A stretch of 62,160 nt of DNA from a virus. Lineage: Duplodnaviria; Caudoviricetes. The stretch lies in the IMG/VR virus record IMGVR_UViG_3300032753_000025, positions 1-62,160 of that record. One strand, written 5' to 3'. Below are positions 24,615 to 57,474 of this stretch, one piece after another. The notes beneath the pieces were generated by a model. It had not been told where the DNA came from. It saw nothing but the letters and a program-made list of their open reading frames with translations, and made no database searches. Both the position numbers and the translations under genes were made by a program. How positions within the stretch are numbered: the first letter of the stretch is position 1; every line of letters begins with the position of its first letter.

Positions 24615-25415
24615 TTAGTTCCAGGATATTGTTATTGACCCGTCGCCGCCCTTGTCGCCACCGCCTCCATAATAACTACCGTCGTTATAGCATTGAAATA
24701 AATAATTTATATTCCTACCAACTCCTTGCCCCCCAGTTGAGCCGCCGCCGCCAACTGAATAGTTAATAACAGTTCCTACTGCTAAGCCACTGCCCCCAAG
24801 CAAAGGATTTGATAATGTTGCCGTAATTAATTGCCCAGCGCCACCGCTACCGCCATGAGATCCGCCACCAGTGCCTCCACCGCCATAAGAACCTCCATTT
24901 TTACCGTTATAGTTAGGGCTCCCTGTTGATCCAGCAGAGGAACATTTGACGGCTCCGCACCCACCACCACCACCACCACCGGCATTTGCTACATAACCAG
25001 ACCACCCAGAAGCAGTAAGGCTTGATTTCGTTCCATCTCCGCCGGAACCGCCGTTATCTCCTTGACAATAATTAGTATTAGCGGTTCCGCCACCACCTCC
25101 TCCGCCACCACCACCACCAGCCAATACGCTGAATGTGATTGTGTTGTAGGGAGGAATAGTAAATGTGCCAGAACCTGGCGTATACATTATTGATCCTGAC
25201 GGTATTTTTCTTGAGTTATAAAAAGAATAACCAGTTCCGCTAGGTATAGAAATACTGTTTGGCGCAAATGGAAATGCACTTGTCGTCGTGCCTGCGTCAT
25301 TTGTGTAAAGCTTGTTGCGATAGTCCCCAAGATTTGCGCCATACCCAAATTCATTGTTGATAGAATTGGATGCAGAGCCACCTAATGATAATGGGCCGCT
25401 CGCGGGCAGTGTCAT
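24615..25415 (-). CDS. Glycine-rich receptor-binding adhesin (gp38-like tip protein)
   Basis: TLPASGPLSL..INNEFG N-terminus, polyglycine tracts, GSITISW end; follows the fibre gene. Confidence 0.65.
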   Translation of the reverse strand: MTLPASGPLSLGGSASNSINNEFGYGANLGDYRNKLYTNDAGTTTSAFPFAPNSISIPSGTGYSFYNSRKIPSGSIMYTPGSGTFTIPPYNTITFSVLAGGGGGGGGGGGTANTNYCQGDNGGSGGDGTKSSLTASGWSGYVANAGGGGGGGCGAVKCSSAGSTGSPNYNGKNGGSYGGGGTGGGSHGGSGGAGQLITATLSNPLLGGSGLAVGTVINYSVGGGGSTGGQGVGRNINYLFQCYNDGSYYGGGGDKGGDGSITISWN

Positions 25416-26263: not shown

Positions 26264-28981
26264 TCAAATGTGTCTGTTTGCGACTTCAAGCGCCTTAACG
26301 ACGTGTTCGTCAGGCGCGTTTAATATCTGCTTTGTGCCGTCATTTATACGCTTTCTGGATCGATCAACAGCCTTCATGAGCATGTCGGCAGTCATCTCTC
26401 CCGGAATACGTCCGCCAGCTTTTCTCTGTAAGCGAGGGGGCTGCCCGGCTTGCTCAATAGCGGCGGGATAACCAACTTGCGGAATTGTCTTGCCTGTTTC
26501 TTCTGCCACCTTAGCAATTGCGCCAGACAAAGAAGAGAAAGCCTCAGGTGACGGCTTGCGCATTAGCTGAGCCATTAGCTTAGGGTCATGCATCGCCTCT
26601 TGCAGAAGCTTCATTGCGGCGTCTTTTGTCGTCCCATATAAAAATGAGTTCATGCCAGAAACAATTGGCGCAGTAAGACCTTTGCCGACGCCCAGGAAGC
26701 GGGCAGCGGCAGCGCCAAAGGGCGCACCGCTTGCCGCCGTAGAAACGCCCTCAGCTATGTGTCCAAGAAGAGCCGCGGCGGCCACGTCAGGTATTGCGCC
26801 AGTCGCCCTGCCGTAAAGGATCGACATAATGTTGTTGTTGGCAAGCTTGTCTAACGTCTTCGTGCTTGTCAGGTTGCCGTGAGGAAGCTGAGACACGACC
26901 TTTGACGAACGATGCAAGGCGTCAATATAATTTTGTAGGTCATGATCGCCCGCGGCAATGTCCTTTATCTTGTCTTTGTTTCTATCGAGAAAGTTAGACA
27001 AGCGCTTTGGATTATTGCTGTCGGCTTCGCGCTGGAATGCTTCAGTCAATTGGCGCTTCTGCGCTGCCTCGACGCTTTCACCCGCACGTTGCGCAATATT
27101 CTCTACCCTTCCCCGCAACCCAGGAATTTCGTCAATCACTGACGCCATTTTAGGATCAGAGATAAATTTCTGGACGTCTTTTGGCGTCACATTAAAGTTC
27201 GTGCCGTTCTTCGTTAACTTGCCAATAACCCAATTGGTTGTTGGCTCGTCAATGTTAACGCCAGGGAGCTCGCGGACCATGCGCAAGTTTTGCGCGGCAT
27301 TTGGCCCTGAAAACATTTTGTCAAAAACAGCTTCACCCGCGATACGTTCGCCACCGCCTTGCATATCAGCCACAAGTTCCGACAGGAATTTTGGACCAAA
27401 TGTATCGTGGTAATCTTTTGTCGCGGCGCGAGCCGTGTTCCACGCATTACGCTGAGCACCTGTCTTGTCACCAAAGAGAATATTCTTCTCGTTGTTGAGC
27501 ATTTCAGCAAGCTTTGCTGCCACTTCGTTATTCGCGTGCTGCGTAAAATAATCACCCTTCTCGCCAGCACTGCGCGCCGCAGAAAGGATTTGCGAGCGAA
27601 GATCCTGAAAGTGCAAGAGAGGAATGTTTTTACCTTCAGTCTGGCTAAGAGCCTCAACGACAGACATGGCGTCAGCGTCGAGAGCCTTGCGCTTTGATGG
27701 AGACATTGAATTGATGAAGTCGGCGAGCTCATTCATCGTTTTTGTTTTGTAGATCGCGGCAGACTGAAGTCCGGGATGCGCCCACGCGGTCTTCTCTGCT
27801 TCTGCTTTTTGCTTCTCCAGGGCGGACACAACATTTTTAACTTGTATTGCCGCGTCGCCTTGTGGGTTTAAGGACGGAGGAAGGCCGGCAGCAGTCTCCA
27901 TGTCGACTGGCTTAATGTGCGTTCCGACTTCACCAGGAACGCGAGGAGCCGCGGCAGTCGTTGCCTCAAGCGATCTGGCCTCTTGCGCCTTGCGTCGCGC
28001 AATATCTTCCTCACCTTCCTTGCGGCCCATGCCTTCCAGCCTGGTCTCAAGCGCCTTTGCCTCGCCACCGCCAAGGACTTGCGCAGTTGTTGGCTGCACT
28101 TCTTCGACGTAACGACCTGGCTGTCCTTGTAGCGTTAACTCAGTCTCTAAGCGCGACGCCGCTTTTTCAGGCTCAGCAAAAGCTTCCCGTGCGACTTGTC
28201 CCGCAATTTTACTAGCGCGCTCCGCAACAGCGGGGGCCGCCCGTGCCTCAAGAAGTTTAGAAATTCCTGCCGCGCCTGCGGCGCCAGGAAGCGCGCCAAG
28301 AAGGCGGGCAGGCATCTCATACTTTGTGCCATGCGTTAGTTCGCCTGCAATCCCTGAACCAAGGCCGCCCAGTGCGCCTGCGGCTAGTCTGGTGCCAATA
28401 CCTCCAGGTCCAGCCAAAGAGCCGCCAGTAAGCTCGCCTGTTGCTTCTGCGACACGTCCCGGAAGTGTTTGTGGGTGATATTCAGGCATGCCGGCGCGAA
28501 TTGCTGCTTGCTGCATGCCGTGAGCTGTCGGGACTGGAAGGCCACCGATCGTTGTTACTTCACCGGCGAGCTCGCGCTCAGACGGCTTGTAGAACTCCTG
28601 GCCAAGTTTCTTGCCGGCTTCCATAAACTGCTCGGCAGTTTGCGGCTGGCCTGCTTTTGTTGGCGGTATAAGGCCAAGAGCCTCAGCGCCCTCAGCTAGT
28701 TTGCGCGTGCCATACTCGCCGGCAATATCATACAGCTGAGCCAAAGACCCAGGCATTCCGGGGATGCCGACTGCGCCCTTGGCGGCCCCAGATACAAACC
28801 CTTTGCCAATGTCTTCACCAAATCCTGGTGGCGTTGGCTTACGCGCCGATGGCGGGTTGAACTTAAATTCAGGCGTAGAGGTCGCGCTTCTTTCTGCCTC
28901 AACAAATGCAGGGGTTGGGGCTTCCTTTCTCCGCAAGCTTGGCGGAGAAAAGACAAAATCCTTCTTCTCTTCCTCTGCCAT
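26264..28981 (-). CDS. Putative internal virion/DNA ejection protein
   Basis: Large Ala/Gly-rich helical protein in the podovirus ejectosome position; C-terminal RKAGGRI. Confidence 0.65.
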   Translation of the reverse strand: MAEEEKKDFVFSPPSLRRKEAPTPAFVEAERSATSTPEFKFNPPSARKPTPPGFGEDIGKGFVSGAAKGAVGIPGMPGSLAQLYDIAGEYGTRKLAEGAEALGLIPPTKAGQPQTAEQFMEAGKKLGQEFYKPSERELAGEVTTIGGLPVPTAHGMQQAAIRAGMPEYHPQTLPGRVAEATGELTGGSLAGPGGIGTRLAAGALGGLGSGIAGELTHGTKYEMPARLLGALPGAAGAAGISKLLEARAAPAVAERASKIAGQVAREAFAEPEKAASRLETELTLQGQPGRYVEEVQPTTAQVLGGGEAKALETRLEGMGRKEGEEDIARRKAQEARSLEATTAAAPRVPGEVGTHIKPVDMETAAGLPPSLNPQGDAAIQVKNVVSALEKQKAEAEKTAWAHPGLQSAAIYKTKTMNELADFINSMSPSKRKALDADAMSVVEALSQTEGKNIPLLHFQDLRSQILSAARSAGEKGDYFTQHANNEVAAKLAEMLNNEKNILFGDKTGAQRNAWNTARAATKDYHDTFGPKFLSELVADMQGGGERIAGEAVFDKMFSGPNAAQNLRMVRELPGVNIDEPTTNWVIGKLTKNGTNFNVTPKDVQKFISDPKMASVIDEIPGLRGRVENIAQRAGESVEAAQKRQLTEAFQREADSNNPKRLSNFLDRNKDKIKDIAAGDHDLQNYIDALHRSSKVVSQLPHGNLTSTKTLDKLANNNIMSILYGRATGAIPDVAAAALLGHIAEGVSTAASGAPFGAAAARFLGVGKGLTAPIVSGMNSFLYGTTKDAAMKLLQEAMHDPKLMAQLMRKPSPEAFSSLSGAIAKVAEETGKTIPQVGYPAAIEQAGQPPRLQRKAGGRIPGEMTADMLMKAVDRSRKRINDGTKQILNAPDEHVVKALEVANRHI

Positions 28982-31900
28982 TACTTTTCTCCAAGGAGGA
29001 TCGCCGCGACGCCTTTACCATACATTTTATCAATTTCGCCTTTACTGGATTTTACTTGGTCTTTTGTTAAAGACTTCAAGTAACCCATGTCGTCCTTGTC
29101 GATTGCTTCAAGGATGGCGCGATTAACGTATCTCTCTGGAGGATTAAATTTTCTGAATGTTGCGTCAGCGCCGGTAAGCGTTCCAAAGCGCGCCGCATAG
29201 TCTTCCATAAACGCAAGTCGGTCTTGCTGATACTTTGCAGCCTCGCGTAAGCCTGAGCTAATACGCTTATATGCAATTGGACTATTTTCCATGCCAGGAT
29301 TTGCTTTTACCGCGCTCTGCACAATGAAGCCTGGCTCGTGGCCAAGAGATCTGGCGACATCAAAGCCAAGACGCGTGGTGTCTTTTGACAAGGCTTCTGC
29401 CGCCGCAACATTGTTTGGATCAAACAAAGGCTGGCCGCCAAGCATTGTCGTTATTTCATTTGCAGTCTTGGCAAGGTCTGTTCTTGCTTGAGATGCAGGG
29501 CCTGGCTCTAAGAAGTTTGCCTCTTTAGGCAATTGATCAAATTGATGCTCCATTTCGTCGAGACGGTAGAGCTGATCAAATGCTGCCTTCGATGTTGTGC
29601 GAAGCCCTTCTACTTCTTTCTTAGCCGCTTCTTGCTGCTTAGGAAGATCGCCGCTCATTGCAATGTTAAGAGCGCCAGGGATCTTTGTGTCTTTTGGTGC
29701 GGCAAGCGTCGGCTGCCAGTCAATGGCGTCACCAACTTTACGCTCTTTTCCTTGAACCTTTTCTTGAAGAGACTTCTTGCCAATATCTTCAATTCTTTCA
29801 CCACCGCCGCGTGTTGGTATTTTATTAACGTCGACGTTTTTAGTTGGATTACCATCAGCGTCAGAAATCTGAACAGGCGTCTTGTATGGCTGCGTCTTGT
29901 CGTAGACCATCCAGCCAACATTCGGCACCCACTGCTTCTCGTAGAGAGTAGAAAGTTTTTCTTTTGTCTCTGCCGCAGCGCGTGCCGCGAGGTTCTCGCG
30001 CTCTTTAGTTTCAGCGGCAAGTTTTGGAACTTCAGCCTTGAGTTTCTCAATCTCTGGGATCTGTTTTCCGACATCCATGTAAGACTTAGCGCCAGCGCCA
30101 AGACCCGCACCCGCGCCTCTCAGCATTGCGCCGCCAAGGCTTGTGGTCGGAGACGAAACCATCCCCTCAAGTGCAGCGCCAAGACCTGAAAGCAACGGCA
30201 CCACTGTTTGACGGTTAAGGCCAAATCCTTCTTCAGATGGCTTAACACCTCCTGAAAGATTTACTGTCGACCCTTCTTCAGGAAGATTTGCCTGAGCGTA
30301 ATAGCTTCTTGCATTTGGCGGCAAGTTAGAAAGAGCGTCTCCGACACCGCCGCGTAGTGCTTCATTTCTATTTGCCCAAGCTTTTTCGTATTTTCCGTAT
30401 TTTTCAGGATCGCGAGCAACTAAATTATTAAGAAACGCCTCGCGTGCCGCCATGAACTTTTCAGGATCGTTGCCTGATTGCTTTAGGAACTGACGCGCAC
30501 GTCCCGGACCAGCCATGACTGCAGTGTCGTAGGCCATGCCGCGAACGCCTTCAGGAAGCTGATCGGCATTAATGCCTTGCCAGTATTCTTTGCGGTAGAT
30601 GTCTTTTGCTTGATCGCGGGTGAGGTTTCTAACATCAATACCCGGATGCGCGGCTTGATTGATGCCATACATAGACGGAGTTTTGTTCGTGTCGCTTGGG
30701 TTCAGTCCGCCTTCAAACTTAAATGTCTGCTCTACATTTCGCTCGAAATCGTCGTCTGATGGCTTAACAAAACCTTCGCCTTCATACCCACGGCGGCCAA
30801 CTAATCCGCCATCGTAATAGCCGACACGACCGCCGTCCTTTAGAGCAAAAGGAAGTAACGATGAAAGAAAACTTAATATCCCACCAGAACCTGCGGCGTC
30901 TGCCGCTGTTCCAATAGTTGGGACAGCCATATTTCCAGCCGCCCCCACAACACCATATGCAGGAGCGGTTGTCGGTGCAGACGCAGAGCCTAATCCACTA
31001 AACAAACTACCAATGCCAAGGTCTTTACCAAGCTTGGTGGCCTGATCTGCTAATCCTAATAAACCAGAAAGAGACGTTCCTTGTTTAGCGCCGCTCCCGC
31101 CTCCAAGGCCGCCTGGCGTTAAACCATGAGACCCTTGGATCTGGCCGGTAGGCATCGCTTGAGCCTTCTCAGCCTTGTCCATGTCCTCATACATTTTGGC
31201 TTGTTCTTGGGCTAACGCGGCAGGATCCGTGTCTACGGCACCAGTGAGATTGTATCCCTTACGACCGACAACTCCGCCGCGGTAATAATCTTTACCTGGC
31301 GTTAGATCGATTACAGCGCCGCCCATACGCTCCTTGCCTTTGGCGCGACCGCCACGAGCCAGGAACATGCCAAATGGATTTTGAGCTTGAGCTTGATACG
31401 TCTGTTGACCAGTAAGCGGGCCAAGGCCGCCGGCAAGTCCGCCAAGAAACTGCGCCTGCATGTATGGCCACATTTGCTGCTGCTGGAACTGATTGTAGAG
31501 GGCGTTGATGCCAGCTTGCTGCGTTTGCTGGCCAAGAGTGCCTGCCCCCAATTGTGCTTGAGCTTGACCAAGCGCCGCCTGCTGCGCGGCAGTCCCGATG
31601 TTGCCAAGCTGCTGCGCGCCTTGAAGGCCATATTGCTGTTGGTTCTGAGCAGCCTGAAGGGCCTGGCCGTATCCTGTCTGATACAGTGGGCTCAATGCTT
31701 GGCCTAATCCAAGGTTTTGCTGACCCATAAGCGTCGCACGTGTAAGGGCGTCACGCTGTCCGCCAAAAGCGCCGCCTTGTATTGCTTGTTGTTGCTGTTG
31801 AGCTAATTGCTGACCTTGCTGCTGTTGAACTGCCTGCTGAACCGGGCTGACAACCTGGTTCATGTAAGGGTTCATGTAGTTCCCAACCGTATTGTAGGCA

Positions 31901-32205
31901 GGGTTCAAGGCATTCATTGTCGCGCCAGTGGCCATATTGTAATACGGCTGCGCCATGCCTTGCGTATTCGTAATATTTTGAATAGCGCCGGTTTGGGTAG
32001 GATTTAACTGCGCGACAAATTGTTCTGGCGTAGTGCCAAACTGCTGGTATGGCTGGGCAACGGCATTCTGCGCCATGCCCATTGCCTGATTATACCAGCC
32101 AAGCGCCTGCGGAGATGCCGTTGTAGTGGCCTGCTGCGCGGGGGCTAATCCGCCCCATCCAAGAGCCCCTTGGCCTCCACCACTTTGGCTACCCTTGCCG
32201 CACAT
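28981..32205 (-). CDS. Putative ejection protein with GH108 lysozyme-like domain
   Basis: MCGKG start, Gln-rich N-terminus; EGG...D....YGI...A..IYRKEYW..INADQLP....YDTAVMAGPGRA. Confidence 0.75.
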   Translation of the reverse strand: MCGKGSQSGGGQGALGWGGLAPAQQATTTASPQALGWYNQAMGMAQNAVAQPYQQFGTTPEQFVAQLNPTQTGAIQNITNTQGMAQPYYNMATGATMNALNPAYNTVGNYMNPYMNQVVSPVQQAVQQQQGQQLAQQQQQAIQGGAFGGQRDALTRATLMGQQNLGLGQALSPLYQTGYGQALQAAQNQQQYGLQGAQQLGNIGTAAQQAALGQAQAQLGAGTLGQQTQQAGINALYNQFQQQQMWPYMQAQFLGGLAGGLGPLTGQQTYQAQAQNPFGMFLARGGRAKGKERMGGAVIDLTPGKDYYRGGVVGRKGYNLTGAVDTDPAALAQEQAKMYEDMDKAEKAQAMPTGQIQGSHGLTPGGLGGGSGAKQGTSLSGLLGLADQATKLGKDLGIGSLFSGLGSASAPTTAPAYGVVGAAGNMAVPTIGTAADAAGSGGILSFLSSLLPFALKDGGRVGYYDGGLVGRRGYEGEGFVKPSDDDFERNVEQTFKFEGGLNPSDTNKTPSMYGINQAAHPGIDVRNLTRDQAKDIYRKEYWQGINADQLPEGVRGMAYDTAVMAGPGRARQFLKQSGNDPEKFMAAREAFLNNLVARDPEKYGKYEKAWANRNEALRGGVGDALSNLPPNARSYYAQANLPEEGSTVNLSGGVKPSEEGFGLNRQTVVPLLSGLGAALEGMVSSPTTSLGGAMLRGAGAGLGAGAKSYMDVGKQIPEIEKLKAEVPKLAAETKERENLAARAAAETKEKLSTLYEKQWVPNVGWMVYDKTQPYKTPVQISDADGNPTKNVDVNKIPTRGGGERIEDIGKKSLQEKVQGKERKVGDAIDWQPTLAAPKDTKIPGALNIAMSGDLPKQQEAAKKEVEGLRTTSKAAFDQLYRLDEMEHQFDQLPKEANFLEPGPASQARTDLAKTANEITTMLGGQPLFDPNNVAAAEALSKDTTRLGFDVARSLGHEPGFIVQSAVKANPGMENSPIAYKRISSGLREAAKYQQDRLAFMEDYAARFGTLTGADATFRKFNPPERYVNRAILEAIDKDDMGYLKSLTKDQVKSSKGEIDKMYGKGVAAILLGEK

Positions 32206-32218
32206 GCATTTTCTCCGC

Positions 32219-32734
32219 TTATTGCTGGGCTTCTATAACTGGTGTCTGCCAGTCCCCAGTTTTTACGCCGTATAAGAAGAAAGCACCAGCAGGAGCGCCA
32301 AATACTCTCTCATAAAGCTTAACCTTGCTCTCAGTCCGGTGTGTTGATAGCACGCCAATAATGAGAGGCATTCCAAGCTCATCCGCCACTTGCTTGCTAA
32401 ATTCGCAAAGCTTTCTTGCCCTGCCGCCGCTTGCACCCCTGTGCTTTGGATGAACAAAAACTGTCTTTTCTTCTATTATCGGAGCGTCAGAATACCACAT
32501 ATTGCCCACGCGTAGCAAAACGAAGCCCTCAACCATCTCCCCAGGATTTCCAATGACGCCAACTAGGCCGTGGTCTTGGTGCAGCGACATCCAAATATCC
32601 CACAAAATCTTATCGACATTTGGCTTAAAAATTCCGTTTTCCTTGCACACCATAAGCGCCAATTCCATGACGCCGTCGACATCTTGCGGCACGCCAACTC
32701 TTATCTTTACCTCTTCTATAGGTTTTCGCGGCAT
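32219..32734 (-). CDS. GNAT-fold protein (T7 gp13-like position)
   Basis: FVHPKHRGASGG..KL and KLYER GNAT motifs. Confidence 0.65.
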   Translation of the reverse strand: MPRKPIEEVKIRVGVPQDVDGVMELALMVCKENGIFKPNVDKILWDIWMSLHQDHGLVGVIGNPGEMVEGFVLLRVGNMWYSDAPIIEEKTVFVHPKHRGASGGRARKLCEFSKQVADELGMPLIIGVLSTHRTESKVKLYERVFGAPAGAFFLYGVKTGDWQTPVIEAQQ

Positions 32735-32743
32735 CGTTCCCCC

Positions 32744-33250
32744 TTAGTCGCGTTTTGGCCCTGGAAGTTTTTTCAGTGTCTGAACAGTTTTTGCGCGGTA
32801 ATCTGTAACGAAGTCATCAAGTGTGTGATGGCCTCTATCAATATCCCCACCGCCAATACGAGAGACATTAAAAGGCGTAATAACATACTCGCCCCCTGCC
32901 ACGATAACTTCTACTGGCGGCTCTTCGCCAACATGCTGCGTCCCAAACACGTCATTGGCGATACGAAACCCCGCCATTGTGTTGCCTTCACCCATTGCGG
33001 AGATAATGTCCGCGGGGATGACGTAAGACCCAGAGTGAACATTTACTGGCAAATGGTCCGTGCGACCGGCTACCGGACTGTGTATGGGGCCGACGTGGAT
33101 CTTATTTGATATTTCTCCGCCCATAGCACGTCTTTGGCGAGACTGATTAAGCGCGGCGGCTACTGCTTGTTTCTGGGGATGGCCTGCCTTGACCATCTCA
33201 GAAATATTTTTGCTGATTGTTTTCTGGCTTGATCCTTTAAGTAACGGCAT
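32744..33250 (-). CDS. Conserved virion-module protein: basic N-domain, RAMGG, then a 'GP..GRTD..GxYV' domain
   Basis: MPLLKGSSQKTISKNI..QKQAVAAAL; GPIHSPVAGRTDHLPVNVHSGSYVIPADII; second GGEYVI. Confidence 0.8.
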   Translation of the reverse strand: MPLLKGSSQKTISKNISEMVKAGHPQKQAVAAALNQSRQRRAMGGEISNKIHVGPIHSPVAGRTDHLPVNVHSGSYVIPADIISAMGEGNTMAGFRIANDVFGTQHVGEEPPVEVIVAGGEYVITPFNVSRIGGGDIDRGHHTLDDFVTDYRAKTVQTLKKLPGPKRD

Positions 33251-33258
33251 GTGTCACC

Positions 33259-33873
33259 TCAACCAAGCGAGTAAGTGATGGAGATTGTCTGTCCAGTCCC
33301 GATAACGACGTAAAGACCGTATGAGAATTGAGCGCCAATTTGATACGTGCCAATTGTTGTAGGGGCCGCCGCTATTTTATTTGCCGTATTCAAATTAAAC
33401 ACAGTGCCGGCAACAGTCTGAGTGCCAGACGTGCTATTTGTGAAAGAAAAGGCAGTTGTCGTTGGCGCGGGAGAAGCGGAGACAGACGTAGTAGATCCGG
33501 GAGTAGTGTTAAATCCTGTAGGGACAACGCCTGATATAATCACCGTGTCTGTTGCTGCAAATGTAGGAGTAGTTGTGGAACCGCCGCTGTATCCAATTGT
33601 CGCTGTTCCTGAACTGCTTGCGGCGGATATCGTCGGATAAGTGCGGTAATCATAAAACACGCTCGCCCCAGTGCCGGCAACAATTGTGTTAATACTTACA
33701 AGTCTTCCAGCTGATAAAGATATGATTGCCCCAGTCGCTGATATGCCATCAGAAGTATATTGCCCGACTGCATAGGCGTAGTTTTTCTGAAACGTGGTCA
33801 GCGTTTGATTAAGGTTGTTGATGGCAATGACGCCATTCTTTTGTGTTGTGAGGGTGTCGTCGAGCGTTGCCAC
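33259..33873 (-). CDS. Virion structural protein (Thr/Ser-rich)
   Basis: Position after the nozzle; beta-rich composition. Confidence 0.6.
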   Translation of the reverse strand: MATLDDTLTTQKNGVIAINNLNQTLTTFQKNYAYAVGQYTSDGISATGAIISLSAGRLVSINTIVAGTGASVFYDYRTYPTISAASSSGTATIGYSGGSTTTPTFAATDTVIISGVVPTGFNTTPGSTTSVSASPAPTTTAFSFTNSTSGTQTVAGTVFNLNTANKIAAAPTTIGTYQIGAQFSYGLYVVIGTGQTISITYSLG

Positions 33874-36182
33874 TAGAATTTCCCATCTTGTTCATAGCGG
33901 TAACGTATAGCACCAAGACGCCAGAAAGTCCCGATTTCAGTAGGAGAGCTGTCTATTCTTAATGCCATTAGACGTGCACGAAAACGCGGAGTTATGTATG
34001 TCGTCGCAGTGCTTAAGTCATAAGGACCATAAACCTTTGGCGTATCTGTTGGGTAATCGGCAGTATAAAAGGATAACTCTACGTGAGCAGTCTGCGACTG
34101 ACCATAGTATCCCCACTTCATGTCAGGCCAAACCTGATCAACAAAGACCTTAACTTCAGCGTCAGACATTGCAAAATATCCAGTCTGGAAGAACGACTGC
34201 ATTACTGCCCCGTCAGCGTCTGGGGATGTTTCGTGCTGATAAACGTAATAGTTTTGAGACGATATTCCTGCACCAATTGGCGGACCAAGAACGGATTGAT
34301 TAATCCACGCCGTTCTCGTTAGAGTTCCAAAGTCCCACTGATCAAGCGTGACATTATATTTGACGTATTTAGATACTTCGCCACCGTCTGTTGTTGTTGG
34401 GTAATACCAGGATATTTCACCAAACTGTGAATTGGCGGCAATTCTAATTTTATCGACATTATTTAGATCAAGGTCCTGGAAAATAACGTCCCATATCGGG
34501 CATCTAATTATCTCTACGCCATTATTGCCGAGTTTGAAGAACTGGCTTTGCCCCATCCAATAAACGACGCCATTCATTGATGTGGCGGCTTTGCGCGAGA
34601 TAAGTCCGCAGCCAGTGCCAATTTCGTTAAACTGGTAGACGTATGGCGGACCAGAGTATTGCATTGCCCAAATTGCAAGGTCTGTCCAAACAAGTCCCTG
34701 TTGCGGACCCTGAATGCACCCAACAATTTTTGACCCACGCGGGAGACGATAAGAGCCGGCCTGATTTGTTATCTGTGGTATCCAGGAAGTAAAATCATTA
34801 ACGTCAGACCAATTAATTAGTAGCGGATCTTGTATGCCGGTAAATGTTGACCCCCACGCAATAACTTGGCGTTGAGGCATTGCGACAAACATGCCGTCAT
34901 TTACTATTGGTGCATTTGCAATGACAGACGCGACAACGGCACCAGTATTTGGTTGCCATGTATAAATTCCGCCACCTACTGGACACGAAACAAATATTTG
35001 TCCCCAATTGTCGAGCGTCCAATCATTCACAGTAATTGGCGACCCTTGAATAATCGCCGGAGGAAGAACGCCAGTGCCGTAGCCGCCAGCTCCGTATCCG
35101 CCGACGCCGTATCCTATGCCTGTTGGAAGAGGTGCCGGAGTTCTATAAAATTGATATTGAGCCTTGCCTGCATTTAAAGATGCAGAGCTATTTAACACGG
35201 TCCCTACAGCGCCAATTGATGCCGCCGCGCCGTGCGCAAACGATACGCTGCTAGATGTCGCCGCAGTTACCGTATACGTTCCGTCATATGTCGTCGTGCC
35301 CGATACTGTTACTATATCCCCGACGTGAAAAGTATAAGTTCCACTGAATATTACGGTAGCAGTTCCAGACGTAACACTGGCGCTTACAATAGAGGCGGTT
35401 GTCGCGGTAGATCCGGCGATAAACGTAAAAGTATTTGCGTCACTAACTGAATTTACTGTGTAGTTTCCGTATAATGTTACTGACCCGTAAGTCCCGCTTA
35501 TAACAATTGGAAATGTGCTTCCAACTGAATAGCCGTGATTATTTAATACAACACTTACTTGAGCTTGATTGCTTGTAAAAGAAAAGAAAGAAAAGACGGG
35601 GACAGCGCCGCTTGGAGACGTTATTGTTGACGTCGCCGCTAATGGGTTCCCCAGCGCATCTTTTGCAACAATTTGAAACTGATCAACACCTAAAAACAAA
35701 CACTGGTATGTGCCAAACAACACCAGTCCGTCTACTGCTATTTGAGTTTTTATGTATACGGTGTCATACGCACTGACATTAGAGCCAACTGCGTAAATAG
35801 TTATTGTGCTTGATCCTGCAGGTGTCGTTATTCCATTACTTGCGTCAAATGCATAATTTAATGTATCCGTCCTGGGCGTAATTACTTGCCTATTCCCGCT
35901 AAATATAACAGAAAGCCCATTACCATTTACTGACGTGCTTTGCTGCCCAAGACCTAGATAAGTATTGGCGTTCGTGTCTTCCCATGCCCACAATGCGCGG
36001 ACAATGTCTCCGACGGAGTTCGCGAAGAACTTTGTCCATCCGCCAAGCTTTTGGACAAGCGCGACGCCCTGGCGATCGGGGACGAACCGTATGAGGTTTG
36101 TTTGAGATATCGCCGCCTCGTTGAACGTCGTTGTGCGGTTTTGATCGACGCCAGGGATAAGCTTGAGTGTTTGATGCGGCAT
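33873..36182 (-). CDS. Tail nozzle / stabilization protein (P22 gp10 / T7 gp12-like)
   Basis: Beta-propeller-like repeats: DNWG, WSD, GCGLI, VYWMG, EISWYYP, WDFGTL.RTAW, WRLG. Confidence 0.8.
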   Translation of the reverse strand: MPHQTLKLIPGVDQNRTTTFNEAAISQTNLIRFVPDRQGVALVQKLGGWTKFFANSVGDIVRALWAWEDTNANTYLGLGQQSTSVNGNGLSVIFSGNRQVITPRTDTLNYAFDASNGITTPAGSSTITIYAVGSNVSAYDTVYIKTQIAVDGLVLFGTYQCLFLGVDQFQIVAKDALGNPLAATSTITSPSGAVPVFSFFSFTSNQAQVSVVLNNHGYSVGSTFPIVISGTYGSVTLYGNYTVNSVSDANTFTFIAGSTATTASIVSASVTSGTATVIFSGTYTFHVGDIVTVSGTTTYDGTYTVTAATSSSVSFAHGAAASIGAVGTVLNSSASLNAGKAQYQFYRTPAPLPTGIGYGVGGYGAGGYGTGVLPPAIIQGSPITVNDWTLDNWGQIFVSCPVGGGIYTWQPNTGAVVASVIANAPIVNDGMFVAMPQRQVIAWGSTFTGIQDPLLINWSDVNDFTSWIPQITNQAGSYRLPRGSKIVGCIQGPQQGLVWTDLAIWAMQYSGPPYVYQFNEIGTGCGLISRKAATSMNGVVYWMGQSQFFKLGNNGVEIIRCPIWDVIFQDLDLNNVDKIRIAANSQFGEISWYYPTTTDGGEVSKYVKYNVTLDQWDFGTLTRTAWINQSVLGPPIGAGISSQNYYVYQHETSPDADGAVMQSFFQTGYFAMSDAEVKVFVDQVWPDMKWGYYGQSQTAHVELSFYTADYPTDTPKVYGPYDLSTATTYITPRFRARLMALRIDSSPTEIGTFWRLGAIRYRYEQDGKF

Positions 36183-36844
36183 TAAGCGGCCTCCCACATT
36201 AAATGCAAAAGTTCCGCTGGTATTTTATTTCCCTTACTAAGATTTTCTTCTGCCTTAATCACTCTTAAATTCCAAGGAACATGAAGACCAGTAAATCCGT
36301 TACCCTGTATGGGGTGGATATGATCAACATGATGAAGAACGCCAGTTGTTTCTGACATCATTTTCGCGGCAGCATAATACCATTGTATTTGAATATGATG
36401 AATTTCGTTAAGCCATTCTGGTGTCGCATTAAGTTTTGCTGCTCTGCGCGTTGCGCTTCTAGCCATATAATCCGTTTTGTTATTTTGATAATGTTTTTTG
36501 CGTGCTTTTCTATTAACCTCCCTATTTTCACGCTGATATTTTCCGACACGCTCTATTATCATCTCTCTATTGTTTTCATAATGTTCTTCTCTTTGTTTCA
36601 AAATATTTTCTTTGTCGTTGTAATATCTATCTCTATCTTTTTGAAGAACATGCTCTCTATTTTCTTCGCGGTATTTTTTTGCCCTAGCCCTTGATTTTTC
36701 TTGATTGTTTGCGTGCCATTTTCTGGCTTTGGCTGCATCGCAATCTTTACAAATACTCATGCGGCCATCCTTTGATGCTTTCTTAATAGAAAACATATCA
36801 ATTGTTTTTGTTTTGCCGCATTTGTTGCATTTTTTAAATTGCAT
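36182..36844 (-). CDS. HNH endonuclease
   Basis: CNKC..CKDC, RRAAKLNATPEW, HVDHIHPIQG..GLHVPWNL...N..KGN. Confidence 0.9.
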   Translation of the reverse strand: MQFKKCNKCGKTKTIDMFSIKKASKDGRMSICKDCDAAKARKWHANNQEKSRARAKKYREENREHVLQKDRDRYYNDKENILKQREEHYENNREMIIERVGKYQRENREVNRKARKKHYQNNKTDYMARSATRRAAKLNATPEWLNEIHHIQIQWYYAAAKMMSETTGVLHHVDHIHPIQGNGFTGLHVPWNLRVIKAEENLSKGNKIPAELLHLMWEAA

Positions 36845-36848
36845 AATA

Positions 36849-37655
36849 TTAACCGCGAGTTGGGGTAGCAAATCTTGAAGCGCCCTGTGAAGACCACGCA
36901 GCAGCTTCCATCTTTTTGCGCGCCTCTTCTTCAAGAGCGCTCTTTAAGAGTGCTTGATACTGTGTCTCATAGGTCACAGGCATTTGTGGATCATTGCCCA
37001 TAGCACTTGAGAAATTACGCTGATAAGCAGAAATGTAGATCATGCTTGCCATGATAAATAGATCAGGCAAATACAGGCTAATGAATGTGTTCGTCGTTGT
37101 GTATGCCGCATTTGGATAGCCTGGATAATTAGGATCCCCGGACGCACTAGGGCCAAGGCTTTGAGGTCGATACGTTCCAACGAACTCTACCGTATAAGAG
37201 TTGTCTGGATAAGGACCAACTAAGAACGTGTAGTCGTCAAAGGGACACCAATATTTTGGCTGTCCCGTTGCTGTCGAGTTACCGTAAACGGCGTCAAGAA
37301 ACTCTTTTGTCGTCGGCAAAAGCGGGACGCGTGTCCCAAGATCTGGGTTCGTTTGTCCGGCAGGCGTGATGAGGTTTATTTGCTCTGGGACGACAAACGG
37401 GCCAGGCGTCATTGTCGGAGAAATGTATATATCTAGCTGTCGACTTCCGGTTGTTAATGAATAAGAAGTAGTGGACAGAGACGTGAAGAGAAAATCTAGA
37501 TCGCGATATATGCGGTTTTCTGCATATGTGATCATTTGAGGCAGGATCGTAACAAAAGCATCGTCCAGGGGGTCGACAACCGCCATCGTCGATATTTGTG
37601 CGACGTAGCTAGACGTCCCCGCGTCACTTCCGTTAAAGCTTAACCCCGTCGTCAT
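36849..37655 (-). CDS. Tail tubular protein A / adaptor
   Basis: AENRIYRDL, G.PKYW, VGPYPD.SY.VE motifs; upstream of the nozzle. Confidence 0.7.
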   Translation of the reverse strand: MTTGLSFNGSDAGTSSYVAQISTMAVVDPLDDAFVTILPQMITYAENRIYRDLDFLFTSLSTTSYSLTTGSRQLDIYISPTMTPGPFVVPEQINLITPAGQTNPDLGTRVPLLPTTKEFLDAVYGNSTATGQPKYWCPFDDYTFLVGPYPDNSYTVEFVGTYRPQSLGPSASGDPNYPGYPNAAYTTTNTFISLYLPDLFIMASMIYISAYQRNFSSAMGNDPQMPVTYETQYQALLKSALEEEARKKMEAAAWSSQGASRFATPTRG

Positions 37656-38311: not shown

Positions 38312-38809
38312 ATGACAATCTGGAAAGAAATATCTGATCATACTTCATATGAAGTATCTACTTCTGGCGAAGTCAGATTTATTGGTGGATGGAGAAAATT
38401 TGGAAAAACCAAAAGATACGCTCCGCCAAGCATGAGATCGCCTCAGCCTCATTCCGGAGGCTATTTGCAACTTAGACTAAACAAAATAAACTTTTATGTC
38501 CACATTCTTGTGGCAACACATTTTATCCCTAATCCTAATAAACTTCCAGAAGTAAATCATAAGGATGGGAATAAGCATAATAATAATGTCGATAATCTAG
38601 AATGGTGCGATAGAAGAACAAATCAAATTCACAATTCAAGAGAATTAGGAAAAAATAAACACTCAAGGGTCGGAAGAAAAATATCTGAGAAAGAATTTAA
38701 TTCTATAAAAAAAGAAGAAGGATCACTGAAACAAGTTGCAGAAAAATACAACGTAAGCATCACAAGAGTTTTAAGGATACGCAACGGGCTTACTGCCCGT
38801 TGGTATTGA
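38312..38809 (+). CDS. NUMOD4-HNH homing endonuclease, antisense within the lysis cassette
   Basis: WKEI....YEVS..G.V (NUMOD4); VHILVA..F..N....EVNHKDGNK.NN.VDNLEW. Confidence 0.92.
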   Translation: MTIWKEISDHTSYEVSTSGEVRFIGGWRKFGKTKRYAPPSMRSPQPHSGGYLQLRLNKINFYVHILVATHFIPNPNKLPEVNHKDGNKHNNNVDNLEWCDRRTNQIHNSRELGKNKHSRVGRKISEKEFNSIKKEEGSLKQVAEKYNVSITRVLRIRNGLTARWY

Positions 38810-39581: not shown

Positions 39582-40694
39582 TTACTCGCCTTTTTCGCCT
39601 AAATACCAAGACAGGTTCTCTTTCAGTCTATCATCTTCAGGGGCTAATTCCAACGCCAAGCGGCCCTGTTCTGCAGCTATTTCCTTTAAACCCATATTCC
39701 ACGCGGCAATAGCGGCAAAGTCGTGCGGCAAATACCCCCAAGAAGCCTCTTCTGTCGTATAAACCAGCTCTCTATGGGTAATACTTAGAGCCCGCATTGC
39801 GGCCCCATAACTTTCAGGCCATTTATTTTGGTCATAATATAATCTGGCTAATGAAACCCACGGTTCTCTTGTATGAGGAGCTTCTGCCGCGGCTCTGTGG
39901 AAACAGGCCTCTGCCGAATAATGGTTATTAAGAGCCTGATAGCACTCTCCCATAATCCGCATCGCATAGCATCTGTCATTGACCCACGTTGCTTCTGGCA
40001 TTTTTAGGTAACGATCAAGAGCATCAATTGCATCCTGATGGCGACCATAAAAATAGAGCTCACGAGCATAATAAAATGCATTTCTTGGGCAGTGAGGATC
40101 TTCTTTTACTGATAGCTCCAAGGTTTCCATATAATGACCCCTACTTTTACTTGGGTCAGGATGATGCGTTATGAGCATAAAGTCTGTGTGCGCCCACACC
40201 TCCTGTATGCGGAGGTCTGCCCTTATGTGCTCGTGGCAGGGATGGTGCCAGTAATAGCCGTGGCGGGCGTGGATTTTTTCTGAGTAAAAAACTATGCCGC
40301 AACTCCAATCAAATTTATAACGAAGATGCGTTGTCCCCGGTGTCCATACGCGCTCAATTTCCTCCCGCCACCCCGGCTCCATAATCTCATCGGCATCTAA
40401 ACAAATACAAATATCTATATCTCTAGGAATAAGAGCAATAGAGGCGTTTCTGGCGTGGTCAAAGCGCCAAGGCGTGATACAGATATTATGGGTCTGAACA
40501 CCACATTCTTTTGCTATTTCTACTGTTCTGTCAGTGCTCCCAGTATCAGCTATCAAGAGTAAGTCAGCATCTTTTGCCGAAGATGCCCATCTTTTTATAA
40601 ACATCTCTTCATTTTTGGTGATCGTATAAACGCAGATTTTTAGAGGCTTTTTCTCTGGCAAAATCTCTGTAGCGGTTAATTCTAATATCTCCAT
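39582..40694 (-). CDS. GT2 glycosyltransferase with TPR repeats
   Basis: KNEE, DTGSTD, FDHARN, LDADE, HE; TPR-like C-terminal half. Confidence 0.9.
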   Translation of the reverse strand: MEILELTATEILPEKKPLKICVYTITKNEEMFIKRWASSAKDADLLLIADTGSTDRTVEIAKECGVQTHNICITPWRFDHARNASIALIPRDIDICICLDADEIMEPGWREEIERVWTPGTTHLRYKFDWSCGIVFYSEKIHARHGYYWHHPCHEHIRADLRIQEVWAHTDFMLITHHPDPSKSRGHYMETLELSVKEDPHCPRNAFYYARELYFYGRHQDAIDALDRYLKMPEATWVNDRCYAMRIMGECYQALNNHYSAEACFHRAAAEAPHTREPWVSLARLYYDQNKWPESYGAAMRALSITHRELVYTTEEASWGYLPHDFAAIAAWNMGLKEIAAEQGRLALELAPEDDRLKENLSWYLGEKGE

Positions 40695-52183: not shown

Positions 52184-53098
52184 TTACGACGTTGGGAAGT
52201 TGCCGTAAATTGAGCGCCAGTTGTAATAGCCGAAACTGTAGCGTTCATAACCCTTTACGAGTAAGTTGTCAGTCACGAAATCTACCTGCATGTCGGTTTC
52301 GAACTTAACTCTTTCCATGTAAGACAGACCGTCAATGTTGGTTAACAAGAACCAAGCATACGATGACGTCAAGAAGTCGCTGGTCATGAAACCTTCCGGC
52401 AATCCGCCGGCTGTCATCATGATTGCGTTGACGTCATTGTCTGACGTTCCTGGGCGGAGCTCCGTCTTTGTGAGACGGATTGCTACAGGCTCAAGCTGAG
52501 CAGGAACAACCAAACGGCGACCGCGGGCGAAGATCTTCAGGCCAGCCTGGTCTTTGAAGTTTGTTCTGATAGCAATCATGCTGTTCAGAAGCGTGGCTTC
52601 GTTAAGATCAACCTGAACCGTAGGCGTATTCGCTACAGTAGCGCCATCGATTGGATGCGCCGTGGAGCAAAGAGCGACACCGTCACCGCCGACAGACGCG
52701 TTATACGTCGTCGCCGTGTTAAGCACGTTCGCGCCGTAGATCTCTTTGGTCTGGTGGAAGCTTTCCATCAAGCCAAGGTTCGAAGGCATGAACTGTGATT
52801 TGTAGAGGTTGTCGTCGATAGCTTTGCGTGTAATCGCGTAACCCAGAGCAATTTCAGTGTGCTCCTGGTTATAGATGTAACGCTCACCGGCGCTGTTGTC
52901 GAATGCGGTCTGACCACCTTCTGTTTTCAGCTGAGCAAGACCCAGGAAGCGCATTTCAGCAGTGCGCTCAAGCGCCATCTTACTGTCGTGCTTCGTGAAG
53001 ATCTTATCATACTGAGATGGGATCATCTCGTATTTACCCTCAATCCCCCGGAGGCCCGGAAGGAGGAGGTCTTTAATGGCAGAGAGATTAACAGCCAT
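52184..53098 (-). CDS. Major capsid protein (HK97 fold, Mu gpT-like family)
   Basis: LLPGL, K.EG, GYAITR.AIDDNLY, DGVAL.ST.HP, LVVP.QL, ERYSFG..NWR. Confidence 0.92.
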   Translation of the reverse strand: MAVNLSAIKDLLLPGLRGIEGKYEMIPSQYDKIFTKHDSKMALERTAEMRFLGLAQLKTEGGQTAFDNSAGERYIYNQEHTEIALGYAITRKAIDDNLYKSQFMPSNLGLMESFHQTKEIYGANVLNTATTYNASVGGDGVALCSTAHPIDGATVANTPTVQVDLNEATLLNSMIAIRTNFKDQAGLKIFARGRRLVVPAQLEPVAIRLTKTELRPGTSDNDVNAIMMTAGGLPEGFMTSDFLTSSYAWFLLTNIDGLSYMERVKFETDMQVDFVTDNLLVKGYERYSFGYYNWRSIYGNFPTS

Positions 53099-56115: not shown

Positions 56116-57474
56116 TTACTTACCGCGACCCTTTTTCGCTTTAGCGATATCTTCTTTCTGCAATCTGCCTTCGCCTGATCCAGCTCCGGCCTCCATGTCC
56201 TTGTAAGACTTGGCTACTTTGCTGATGCGTCCGCCTGCCTTGCGACCTGGAGCTCCAGGCATTGGCATGCCACCAGGGCCGCCAGGGATAGGCATTGTTG
56301 GAGGTGCGGGAGGAGGAGCGCCAGCGCCGGGAGGCGCAACAGGAGGCATTGGCGGCACCATTGGCGGCTTCATAATGTCAGCGGGAGAAACGGGTGGTTT
56401 GTTCCCGGTTTCTTTTCCAATGTTGACTGAAATCAGCGTGACCTTCTTTGGCTCTTTTGTTTTAGATGCTGATTTTTTTTCGCCGCCAGCGGCGTCAAGG
56501 CTAAGAGATCCGCCGCCGTATTTATTGATGCGCTTTAACGTTTCAGCTAAATGGGCGCGCTTGCCAAGCTTGCCGCCTTTTTTCTCTGCAGCCTCAAGCT
56601 TTTTTTCAGGTATCTTTTCGCCCTTTGGCACGCCAAGCTGCTTGTGAAGAGCTCCTGGCTTTTTAATAGCCTTCTGGATCCACTTACCGCCAGCTTCACC
56701 GCCATCTTTCTTGCCGGTCAGTGCGGTCTTCTTAACCATTTTCTTTACGAGTGAACGATCCTCACGCTCGTCGGGATGCATTTCCGTCTTGCCGCCCTTA
56801 GCGTGAGCTTTACGCTTCACCATGCCGCCGCGCTTGTCGCCCGTGCGTGCAGCGCTTTCTGCCGCTTCTGCTGGAGCCGGAAGGGCGTCGTTCTCTCGAA
56901 GAGCGCGGTCAAGAGCTCCTTTGTCTTCTTGGCTGTAGCGTGCAGTGCCCATTTTTCCGACTTGGCTCATGTCGCTGCCGGTCTTTGGCTTGCCAACCAT
57001 TTTCTCAAGCCAGCTGCCACCACCGCCTGCTTTTTTGACCATCCCACCTTTTTTATAGTGCTCAGCTTTTGAACGAACTGGCGTTGGGTCGATTGCGCCA
57101 AGCGCTTTCTTGTCCTTGATGCCACCGCCCGTGGCATATTTAGCTTTGCCGCCATGCTTAAGAGCGCCGACGTGCTTTACGCCATCGCGCTTCTCGTTGG
57201 CTTCCTTTAAATTCTTGTTCATCATTGCGGTTGCAATTTCACCGCCCGTTGCGCGAGATGGCTTGTCAGCGCGCTTGCGTGCCTCTTGGCCAACAACTTT
57301 GCCGCCTTTCTTATAGGTGCGGCGAGATACTGGGCGCATGCCAGTCTTTGCTTCCGCATTTAGCGGAGGCGCGGGCGACCAGTCAGAGCTGTCGACCTTT
57401 TGGTCTTTCTCGCCTGCCAATCGGCGGGCTTTAGACTTCATGGCCTCACGGCCCTTTTTTGCCATCTCATACAT
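56116..57474 (-). CDS. Lys-rich putative internal (core) protein with about 11 xxGG motifs
   Basis: Very basic; YKKGG, RATGG, LKHGG, YATGG, DKRGG, HAKGG, KKDGG, RKAGG; Pro-rich tail. Confidence 0.8.
   Translation of the reverse strand: MYEMAKKGREAMKSKARRLAGEKDQKVDSSDWSPAPPLNAEAKTGMRPVSRRTYKKGGKVVGQEARKRADKPSRATGGEIATAMMNKNLKEANEKRDGVKHVGALKHGGKAKYATGGGIKDKKALGAIDPTPVRSKAEHYKKGGMVKKAGGGGSWLEKMVGKPKTGSDMSQVGKMGTARYSQEDKGALDRALRENDALPAPAEAAESAARTGDKRGGMVKRKAHAKGGKTEMHPDEREDRSLVKKMVKKTALTGKKDGGEAGGKWIQKAIKKPGALHKQLGVPKGEKIPEKKLEAAEKKGGKLGKRAHLAETLKRINKYGGGSLSLDAAGGEKKSASKTKEPKKVTLISVNIGKETGNKPPVSPADIMKPPMVPPMPPVAPPGAGAPPPAPPTMPIPGGPGGMPMPGAPGRKAGGRISKVAKSYKDMEAGAGSGEGRLQKEDIAKAKKGRGK

Follow-up and report, generated by a model that had tools for sequence, protein, structure and literature searches.

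Genome and Gene Neighborhood

The stretch of DNA analyzed here (the window) comprises the whole virus record of 62,160 bases, the completeness of which was estimated at 99%. Besides terminase, portal, and head genes the record encodes tail fibers and a block of ejection genes, and nearly all of these listed structural genes are located on the minus strand. The gene under study, referred to as P0001, and the genes used to describe its surroundings are the following:

385-2016: large terminase
26264-28981, minus strand: 905-aa protein of the ejection-gene block, without a family match in Pfam and the PHROGs
28981-32205, minus strand: 1074-aa internal/ejection protein with a GH108 lysozyme domain (Pfam PF05838, E 8.9e-13)
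32219-32734, minus strand: GNAT acetyltransferase of 171 aa, directly downstream of P0001 (Pfam Acetyltransf_7, PHROG 1249)
32744-33250, minus strand: P0001 (whole gene, 168 aa), a putative cargo-less chassis with 2824 near-length homologs
33259-33873, minus strand: small Ser/Thr/Gly-rich protein of 204 aa, directly upstream of P0001
33873-36197, minus strand: virion structural protein of 774 aa (PHROG 3287, E 1.4e-51), annotated as "phage stabilization protein" in relatives
52184-53098: major head protein
59678-62059: SU10-type portal (Pfam PF23899, E 1.2e-15)

Read along the minus strand, the gene for the 774-aa protein is followed by those for the 204-aa protein, P0001, the GNAT, the 1074-aa protein, and the 905-aa protein, and the gaps flanking P0001 measure 8 and 9 nt. 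The original prediction had placed the gene just upstream of the GNAT and ejection genes, and this is indeed its position: 9 nt separate P0001 from the GNAT gene, after which the GH108-containing and the 905-aa proteins follow. The 1074-aa protein additionally gave a weak match to PHROG 4287 ("DNA ejection protein"). The neighboring GNAT is divergent, its match to Acetyltransf_7 (E 1.2e-4) lying below the curated cut-off, and the solved structures closest to it gave marginal matches only.

Further open reading frames of the structural and late regions were recorded in passing. Two of them inside the tail gene block (36182-36934, minus strand, and 38312-38809, plus strand) carry HNH-type endonuclease motifs recognizable by eye and are probably homing endonucleases. 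A 370-aa open reading frame (39582-40694, minus strand), located in the late region between lysis-type and tail genes, has by eye the appearance of a glycosyltransferase with TPR-like repeats behind it. A protein of 266 aa (24615-25415, minus strand) is encoded where the structural block ends, next after a tail-fiber-like protein of 280 aa; it consists of 29% glycine with long poly-Gly runs and 36 GG pairs, and no PHROG family was found for it.

Anatomy of P0001

P0001 is built of three parts, namely a basic N-terminal helical hairpin, a disordered linker with the motif RAMGG, and a C-terminal domain of 120 aa (C-domain), the last of which is made up of two repeats:

33128-33250, minus strand: N-terminal basic helical hairpin, residues 1-41, with helices 9-21 and 26-39 (PHROG 2423)
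33116-33130, minus strand: A-x-G-G motif RAMGG of the disordered linker, residues 41-45
32939-33100, minus strand: C-domain repeat 1, residues 51-104, with a GRTD loop, a beta-hairpin (67-72/76-78), and helices 80-86 and 91-102
32747-32923, minus strand: C-domain repeat 2, residues 110-168, with a beta-hairpin (112-117/122-124) and helices 126-132 and 137-161

All motifs quoted in the original prediction were found in the 168-aa reading frame, including the stretch GPIHSPVAGRTDHLPVNVHSGSYVIPADII (residues 54-83) and its second copy VEVIVAGGEYVI (residues 113-124), and the number of homologs recovered (see below) shows that the frame is more than a chance occurrence. The N-terminal part had been called basic, and residues 1-41 indeed have a pI of 11.75 with 8 Lys and Arg vs. 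1 Asp or Glu residue; the C-domain was near neutral in the same charge computation. Residues 1-46 align with positions 1-44 of the 52-position profile of PHROG 2423 (E 1.3e-13) and thus match this family, whereas residues 53-138 weakly match only positions 15-87 of the 678 positions of PHROG 11341 (E 1.1e-5), which by the extent of the alignment is a shared module and not membership.

The second partial copy was examined with hidden Markov models of the individual repeats. The repeat-1 HMM matched the repeat-2 region (i-E 2.3e-3) and the repeat-2 HMM matched the repeat-1 region (i-E 3.8e-4), and because each of the two finds the other, the second copy proposed in the original prediction is considered a true duplication. 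The AlphaFold model of the C-domain likewise contains the order strand-strand-helix-helix twice. Judged by these profile matches and the predicted order, the C-domain consists of one unit, a beta-hairpin with two helices, that has been duplicated internally.

The AlphaFold model of the whole protein, calculated from a 50-sequence alignment, had a mean pLDDT of 90.7 and depicts two independent modules joined by the disordered linker, residues 42-47 being the sole stretch with pLDDT below 50; the C-domain modeled alone reached pLDDT 93.8 and pTM 0.85. Among the 50 aligned homologs G62, R63, D65, G94, G135, G140, and D145 are invariant, and the positions conserved in at least 90% include T64, Y76, P79-A80-D81, S84, N90, E121, H141, and R152. 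The same level of conservation applies to L159, L162, P163, and P165 of the exposed Pro-rich tail LPGPKRD with which repeat 2 ends. Elsewhere in the phage, a six-frame translation of the genome contained no second copy of either the hairpin or the C-module.

Family and Fold Searches

P0001 was compared with sequence, profile, and structure libraries. It matched no Pfam family at E-values up to 1, LPD families included, and no NCBIfam family, so that neither library assigned it an effector domain or a peptidase family. Sequence and profile searches of the PDB with P0001 returned nothing meaningful, and the C-domain profile gave no match to PDB sequences at E-values up to 10. Foldseek found 0 matches in the PDB at E ≤ 1e-3, for the whole P0001 model and the C-domain alike. 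With VIA-align (48,161 representative chains) only the hairpin of the whole model was matched, by generic helical hairpins with a best Z of 5.5, and the best Z of 3.3 for the C-domain lies below the typical background reported by the tool. In BFVD 4 matches at E ≤ 1e-3 were obtained, all of them uncharacterized proteins of uncultured phages, several of which are 533-680 aa long. The predicted fold of the C-domain has no known counterpart in the libraries searched, where a missing match is not proof of a new fold.

The original prediction had also regarded P0001 as a possible processor that cleaves a peptide tag and had recommended a Foldseek search. None of the fold searches returned a peptidase at a meaningful score, a missing match that does not exclude a peptidase fold. 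The near-invariant residues R63, S84, and H141 are replaced by Q, A, and S in a distant homolog from the phage genome MW202545.1, only D65 and D145 persisting, which argues against a catalytic residue set conserved throughout the family. These substitutions are more easily reconciled with a role in binding or structure than with enzymatic activity. Complex predictions of P0001 with the GNAT and with residues 270-340 of the 1074-aa protein, which contain three xxGG motifs, received a score of 0.00 (mark 0.32) and say nothing for or against binding.

Family Architecture, Inserts, and Cargo

An exhaustive search yielded 2956 representatives at 50% identity, of which 215 had E-values below 1e-30, and the large number of near-length homologs of P0001 listed above indicates that empty forms are very common. 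The architecture was counted in the best 150 of the 2956 representatives, a choice that favors proteins keeping both modules. The hairpin was present in 121 of these and N-terminal in 118 of the 121. All 150 contained repeat 1 and 149 contained repeat 2, which ended no more than 6 residues from the C-terminus in 148 of the 150. Proteins of at least 300 aa accounted for 78 of the best 150 representatives, the maximum being 1083 aa.

Inserts were counted with a cut-off of at least 80 aa in the 149 of the best 150 representatives that contain both repeats. Such inserts occurred in 99 proteins, in 80 before repeat 1 (after the hairpin or the protein start), in 18 between the repeats, and in 1 at both sites, and the remaining 50 had an insert of this size at neither site. 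The longest inserts measured 889 and 326 aa. The original prediction had viewed the C-terminal module as one that was freed as a separate protein while tags are distributed on cargo proteins; the family presents a different picture, in which the module is the constant C-terminal end of a putative chassis and the cargo of the relatives resides in the same polypeptide.

The identity of the cargo was determined with Pfam in the 98 representatives of at least 260 aa among the best 150 of the 2956. Domains named by Pfam were ART-PolyVal (7 proteins), InPase (3), GNAT (3), and NUDIX (2), with single occurrences of COXG, DUF6098, and NTase. The inserts of at least 80 of the 98 long representatives received no Pfam name, and the same was true for 6 of 6 long carriers taken from syntenic loci (see below), and therefore predicted effector cargo is established for a minority of the long representatives only. 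The fused GNATs were assigned to families other than that of the neighboring GNAT, since both phmmer and a GNAT HMM found no relatives of the latter among the carrier proteins. The full two-handle form was not found in any cultured phage: among 79 phage records, 1 covers at least 80% of the query, and this record is an uncultured genome.

Conservation of the Locus

Scanning of IMG/VR resulted in 577 confirmed relatives, of which the best 80 loci were kept and their neighboring genes searched by tblastn. Homologs of the 774-aa protein were found in 78, of the 204-aa protein in 58, of the GNAT in 76, and of the GH108 ejection protein in 69 of these 80 loci, where misses may reflect contig ends or divergence, and the gene order was identical throughout. 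The order is also kept in the uncultured genome MW202675.1. In 14 of the 80 loci the syntenic carrier is at least 230 aa long, the hairpin and repeat 1 being separated by inserts of about 60 to 220 aa.

The divergent GNAT (32219-32734, minus strand) thus adjoins the carrier gene in 76 of 80 loci, and elsewhere unrelated GNATs are built into the carrier itself (3 of 98 long representatives). The neighboring GNAT may be a separate cargo or a modifier of the Lys-rich or ejection proteins.

The Two Modules in Other Phages

The hairpin occurs alone, as very basic proteins of 44-58 aa in late or head gene clusters, in four cultured phages:

Enterobacter phage phiEap-2: hairpin-only protein, flanked by the genes for head morphogenesis and the major capsid protein
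Burkholderia phage BCSR129: hairpin-only protein, preceded by a minor capsid protein and a NUDIX enzyme
Pseudomonas phage O4: hairpin-only protein, after two very large proteins and an endolysin
Vibrio phage BD5: hairpin-only protein

In Acinetobacter phage AP22 and 57 further Acinetobacter phage records the hairpin constitutes the first ~37 residues of a 441-aa "head maturation protease." The first 41-46 residues of P0001 are thus matched by the N-termini of both the PHROG 2423 proteins and the AP22-type prohead protease, but the former stop after the hairpin and the latter continues into a protease-scaffold, and the C-domain is present in none of them.

The C-module was found in three further settings in other phages. 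Two units of the GPGTG-x-SD form end a Cys-rich 639-aa protein in the ejection block of MW202545.1, one unit of this form constitutes the C-terminal end of gp065c of Caulobacter phage GB2A, and in gp58 of Pseudomonas phage F116 (PHROG 11341) this form of the module stands at the N-terminus, the gene being located just before those for a 2129-aa and an even larger protein. Like P0001, these proteins are encoded beside large internal virion proteins; unlike P0001, all three are devoid of the N-terminal hairpin, and GB2A has a single unit. A chain of tblastn matches connects P0001 with MW202545.1 (E 7e-7) and the latter with GB2A (5e-8) and F116 (4e-4), and because of these significant intermediate matches the C-modules of podovirus ejection-region proteins are, as judged by sequence similarity, homologous to that of P0001. 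As an observation of its own, two neighboring ejection-region proteins of MW202545.1 (6444-9605) are extremely Cys-rich, the second of them with long Cys-Cys-Cys-Ser-type repeats before a C-terminal xxGG, which is unusual among virion proteins.

AxGG Motifs, GG-Rich Proteins, and Lambda gpH

Among the best representatives, 119 of 150 have a GG pair no more than 26 residues before repeat 1, and 123 of 149 have one at this distance before repeat 2; the complete A-x-G-G motif is present upstream of the two repeats in 91 of 150 and 95 of 149 proteins, respectively. Reading of the sequences by eye further indicated that AxGG recurs at domain borders in the long relatives. The motif is probably recognized by something, or else serves as a hinge. 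In the AlphaFold model the AxGG of P0001 itself is not docked on the C-domain.

According to the original prediction many xxGG strands are distributed over the cargo proteins of this phage. Enrichment was calculated from 500 shuffles keeping the composition of each protein, and the claim applies to one protein only, a Lys-rich protein of 452 aa (56116-57474, minus strand) with 20 GG vs. 9.7 expected and 10 [AKR]xGG vs. 2.4 expected, neither of which was reached in any of the 500 shuffles. The GG counts of the 1074-aa, 905-aa, and 726-aa proteins did not exceed chance. The 452-aa protein is encoded two genes after the portal, has a Pro-rich C-terminal part, and belongs to no Pfam, PHROG, or NCBIfam family. 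The 726-aa protein (57495-59675, minus strand), directly after the portal, contains an HEHQH (HExxH-type) motif and four xxGG in its C-terminal third, and it matched nothing in Pfam or the PHROGs. In a language-model search its residues 190-520 were nearest to clusters carrying LPD23 (score 0.90-0.91, 15 of 30 matches), which we regard as a lead only; LPD23 is a domain of polyvalent proteins. The 726-aa protein may thus represent another protein of the polyvalent type, or else a metallopeptidase with a role in processing.

A related arrangement was noticed in the tape-measure protein gpH of phage lambda, in which residues 729-785 form one strand-GEFV-strand-helix unit between FATGG and YATGG. 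The repeat-2 HMM matched it with an i-E of 0.009 against the single sequence, and hhalign returned a probability of 6.6% (E 0.0055), values that we take as a motif-level resemblance and not as shown homology, a family link to tape-measure proteins being plausible. The statement in the original prediction that such a module follows A-x-G-G in ejection and tape-measure proteins is therefore borne out by significant homology in ejection-region proteins, but in tape-measure proteins only at the level of the motif. According to an article published in 2025 (PMC12617516), gpH is cut in a Gly-rich region near its C-terminus, with neither the site nor the catalyst being known, and the last residues of the C-terminal fragment lie on gpI in the tail tip. 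Residues 729-785 fall just after the Gly-rich region of this unexplained gpH to gpH* cleavage, in a part of the C-terminal fragment (about 690-817) without cryo-EM resolution.

Comparison With Known Systems

Polyvalent proteins, as outlined in the portions of Iyer et al. (2017; PMC5512222) concerned with them, are predicted to be packed into the virion and injected together with the phage DNA, and the list of their domains given there includes ART, InPase, GNAT, and Pol-beta NTase. Domains of these types (ART-PolyVal, InPase, GNAT, and NTase) are found within a single polypeptide in long relatives of P0001, whose genes lie among those for virion proteins. P0001 shares with polyvalent proteins the location among late or virion genes (between tail genes and ejection genes, in the window as well as in the 80 loci), but it has no effector domain itself and thus does not combine at least two disparate activities in one polypeptide. 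A constant bipartite frame with two insertion sites is not described in those portions of the article (PMC5512222), and the full-text literature, as far as its passages on these proteins go, gave no description of a two-handle frame or of AxGG processing; an unnamed domain in the supplementary domain catalog of Iyer et al. may be the counterpart of one of the handles.

The cargo protein C1 (gp45) of crAss001 is a second point of comparison. In the relevant excerpts of PMC10172136, twelve copies of a compact domain (residues 425-552) are attached to the portal within the capsid, an N-terminal segment of the protein being located in the tail, and exit is proposed to proceed from N to C with partial unfolding. 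By analogy, this anchor domain of ~128 residues in the C-terminal part of gp45 may serve as a working model for the C-domain of P0001, with the difference that crAss001 belongs to another phage order. The corresponding Pfam model crAss_CARG1 (PF25725) was not matched by P0001 at E-values up to 1 and no fold match was obtained, and the language-model score of 0.85 for this domain is a lead only.

In the case of lambda gpH, the C-terminal fragment gpHC likewise contains a GEFV unit flanked by AxGG-type motifs, and gpH is ejected and has its C-terminal end anchored in the tail-tip hub; it differs from P0001 with its duplicated C-domain in that the single unit is situated inside a protein of 853 aa. 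The likeness of P0001 to the ejection proteins of podoviruses (T7 gp14-16; P22 gp7, gp16, and gp20) is one of position, i.e., after the tail genes and beside a lysozyme-bearing internal protein. P0001 is better described as an empty, putative two-handle chassis of proteins predicted to be packaged and injected, a variation on what is already known of polyvalent and ejection proteins.

Interpretation and Alternative Explanations

Our preferred explanation, to which we assign an even chance, is that P0001 represents the smallest, unloaded version of a modular carrier with which podoviruses package proteins into the virion and eject them. The carrier would possess two handles, the basic helical hairpin of the first ~40 residues and, at the far end, the C-domain of ~120 residues closing with its exposed Pro-rich tail. 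In related phages effector enzymes would occupy one or the other of two permissive positions, namely the AxGG linker that follows the hairpin and the loop that joins the C-domain repeats, and cargo may have been grafted onto the empty frame many times. The handles are read as end-signals because of their strict terminal placement, the large unrelated inserts tolerated between them, and the slot among ejection genes. The hairpin, which is basic and occurs both in a protease that must enter the procapsid and in small late proteins, may attach to the interior of the head or to the DNA; the C-domain, which ejection proteins also possess, may dock with its conserved free Pro-rich tail on the portal, the core, or the tail lumen. 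The handles would hereby confer incorporation and exit, and P0001 would be a component of the virion, the packaged carrier leaving the particle into the host together with the DNA. Because P0001 has no effector domain and empty forms are common, its own function cannot be cargo delivery, and the abundance of empty forms suggests that the frame has its own role in the particle or in ejection. The observations that run counter to the chassis reading include the N-terminal position of the module in F116 gp58, the missing fold match to the portal-bound domain of crAss001, and the lack of detectable kinship between the fused GNATs and the neighboring GNAT.

An own role of the frame is also expected if P0001 is a purely structural part of the virion, such as an internal core subunit, a tail-lumen plug, or a portal or nozzle gatekeeper for DNA retention or ejection, on which the inserts are decorations. 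The slot in the 80 loci, which is preceded by the genes for the 774-aa tail protein and the 204-aa protein and followed by those for the ejection proteins, the frequency of empty forms, and the related unit in the lambda gpH fragment whose last residues are in the tail-tip hub are all compatible with such a part. A tightly packed subunit is, however, difficult to reconcile with inserts of at least 80 aa at two sites in 99 of 149 proteins, some of which are polyvalent-type enzymes, and we therefore consider a purely structural part rather unlikely, while noting that it overlaps with the carrier explanation in that both expect a structural role for the empty form. The chances are lower still, and clearly poor, for an assembly factor that is absent from the mature particle, i.e., a small scaffold or chaperone by which the large ejection proteins would be brought into the procapsid. 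Small genes at a comparable position in P22 and T7 have been discussed as loaders of ejection proteins, P0001 heads the ejection-gene block, and its basic hairpin is common to the AP22-like prohead protease, which is active inside procapsids; an assembly factor nevertheless leaves ART, InPase, and NUDIX domains in the same polypeptide unexplained, as these are sensible only if the host is reached.

The least probable of the explanations considered here is the one closest to the original prediction, according to which the C-module would recognize the AxGG motifs of other virion proteins through strand complementation, or would cut at them. The motif is conserved yet disordered before each repeat (pLDDT below 50; frequencies as given above), which is the signature of a short recognized motif, it is found at domain borders of long relatives, the 452-aa protein is strongly enriched in it, and in lambda gpH the Gly-rich region that is cut lies upstream of the related unit (PMC12617516). 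These points are outweighed by the missing peptidase family match in Pfam and NCBIfam, by the loss of R63, S84, and H141 in the distant homolog, which leaves Asp65 and Asp145 as too few residues for a catalytic site, by the undocked AxGG in cis in the model, and by the chance-level GG counts of the two large ejection proteins. A broader generalization, which we regard as a long shot, would be that the succession of AxGG, a beta-hairpin ending in GE[YF]V, and a helix is a universal block of proteins that leave tailed phages before the DNA (podovirus internal proteins as well as siphovirus tape-measure proteins), AxGG being the cut site that the adjacent unit recognizes or cuts in cis. If true, it would provide a candidate site and catalyst for the cleavage of lambda gpH to gpH*.

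Implications

Phages are known or predicted to inject enzymes, and to our knowledge the marks that direct packaging and exit are known for a few model phages only. The family, with its thousands of members, offers a testable rule, consisting of a fixed N-terminal hairpin, a fixed C-terminal domain, and two places that tolerate cargo. The C-domain, a confident structural prediction without a known fold, would in addition tie podovirus ejection proteins to a conserved but unexplained tape-measure stretch, in the latter case at the motif level. In a more modest variant of the long-shot generalization above, the two-handle frame could be a natural, swappable cassette for protein injection that accepts chosen cargo. 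Should the handles turn out to suffice for packaging and delivery, proteins of choice could be carried into bacteria in such a frame, and the exchange of early-acting effectors at one locus among freshwater podoviruses would be explained.
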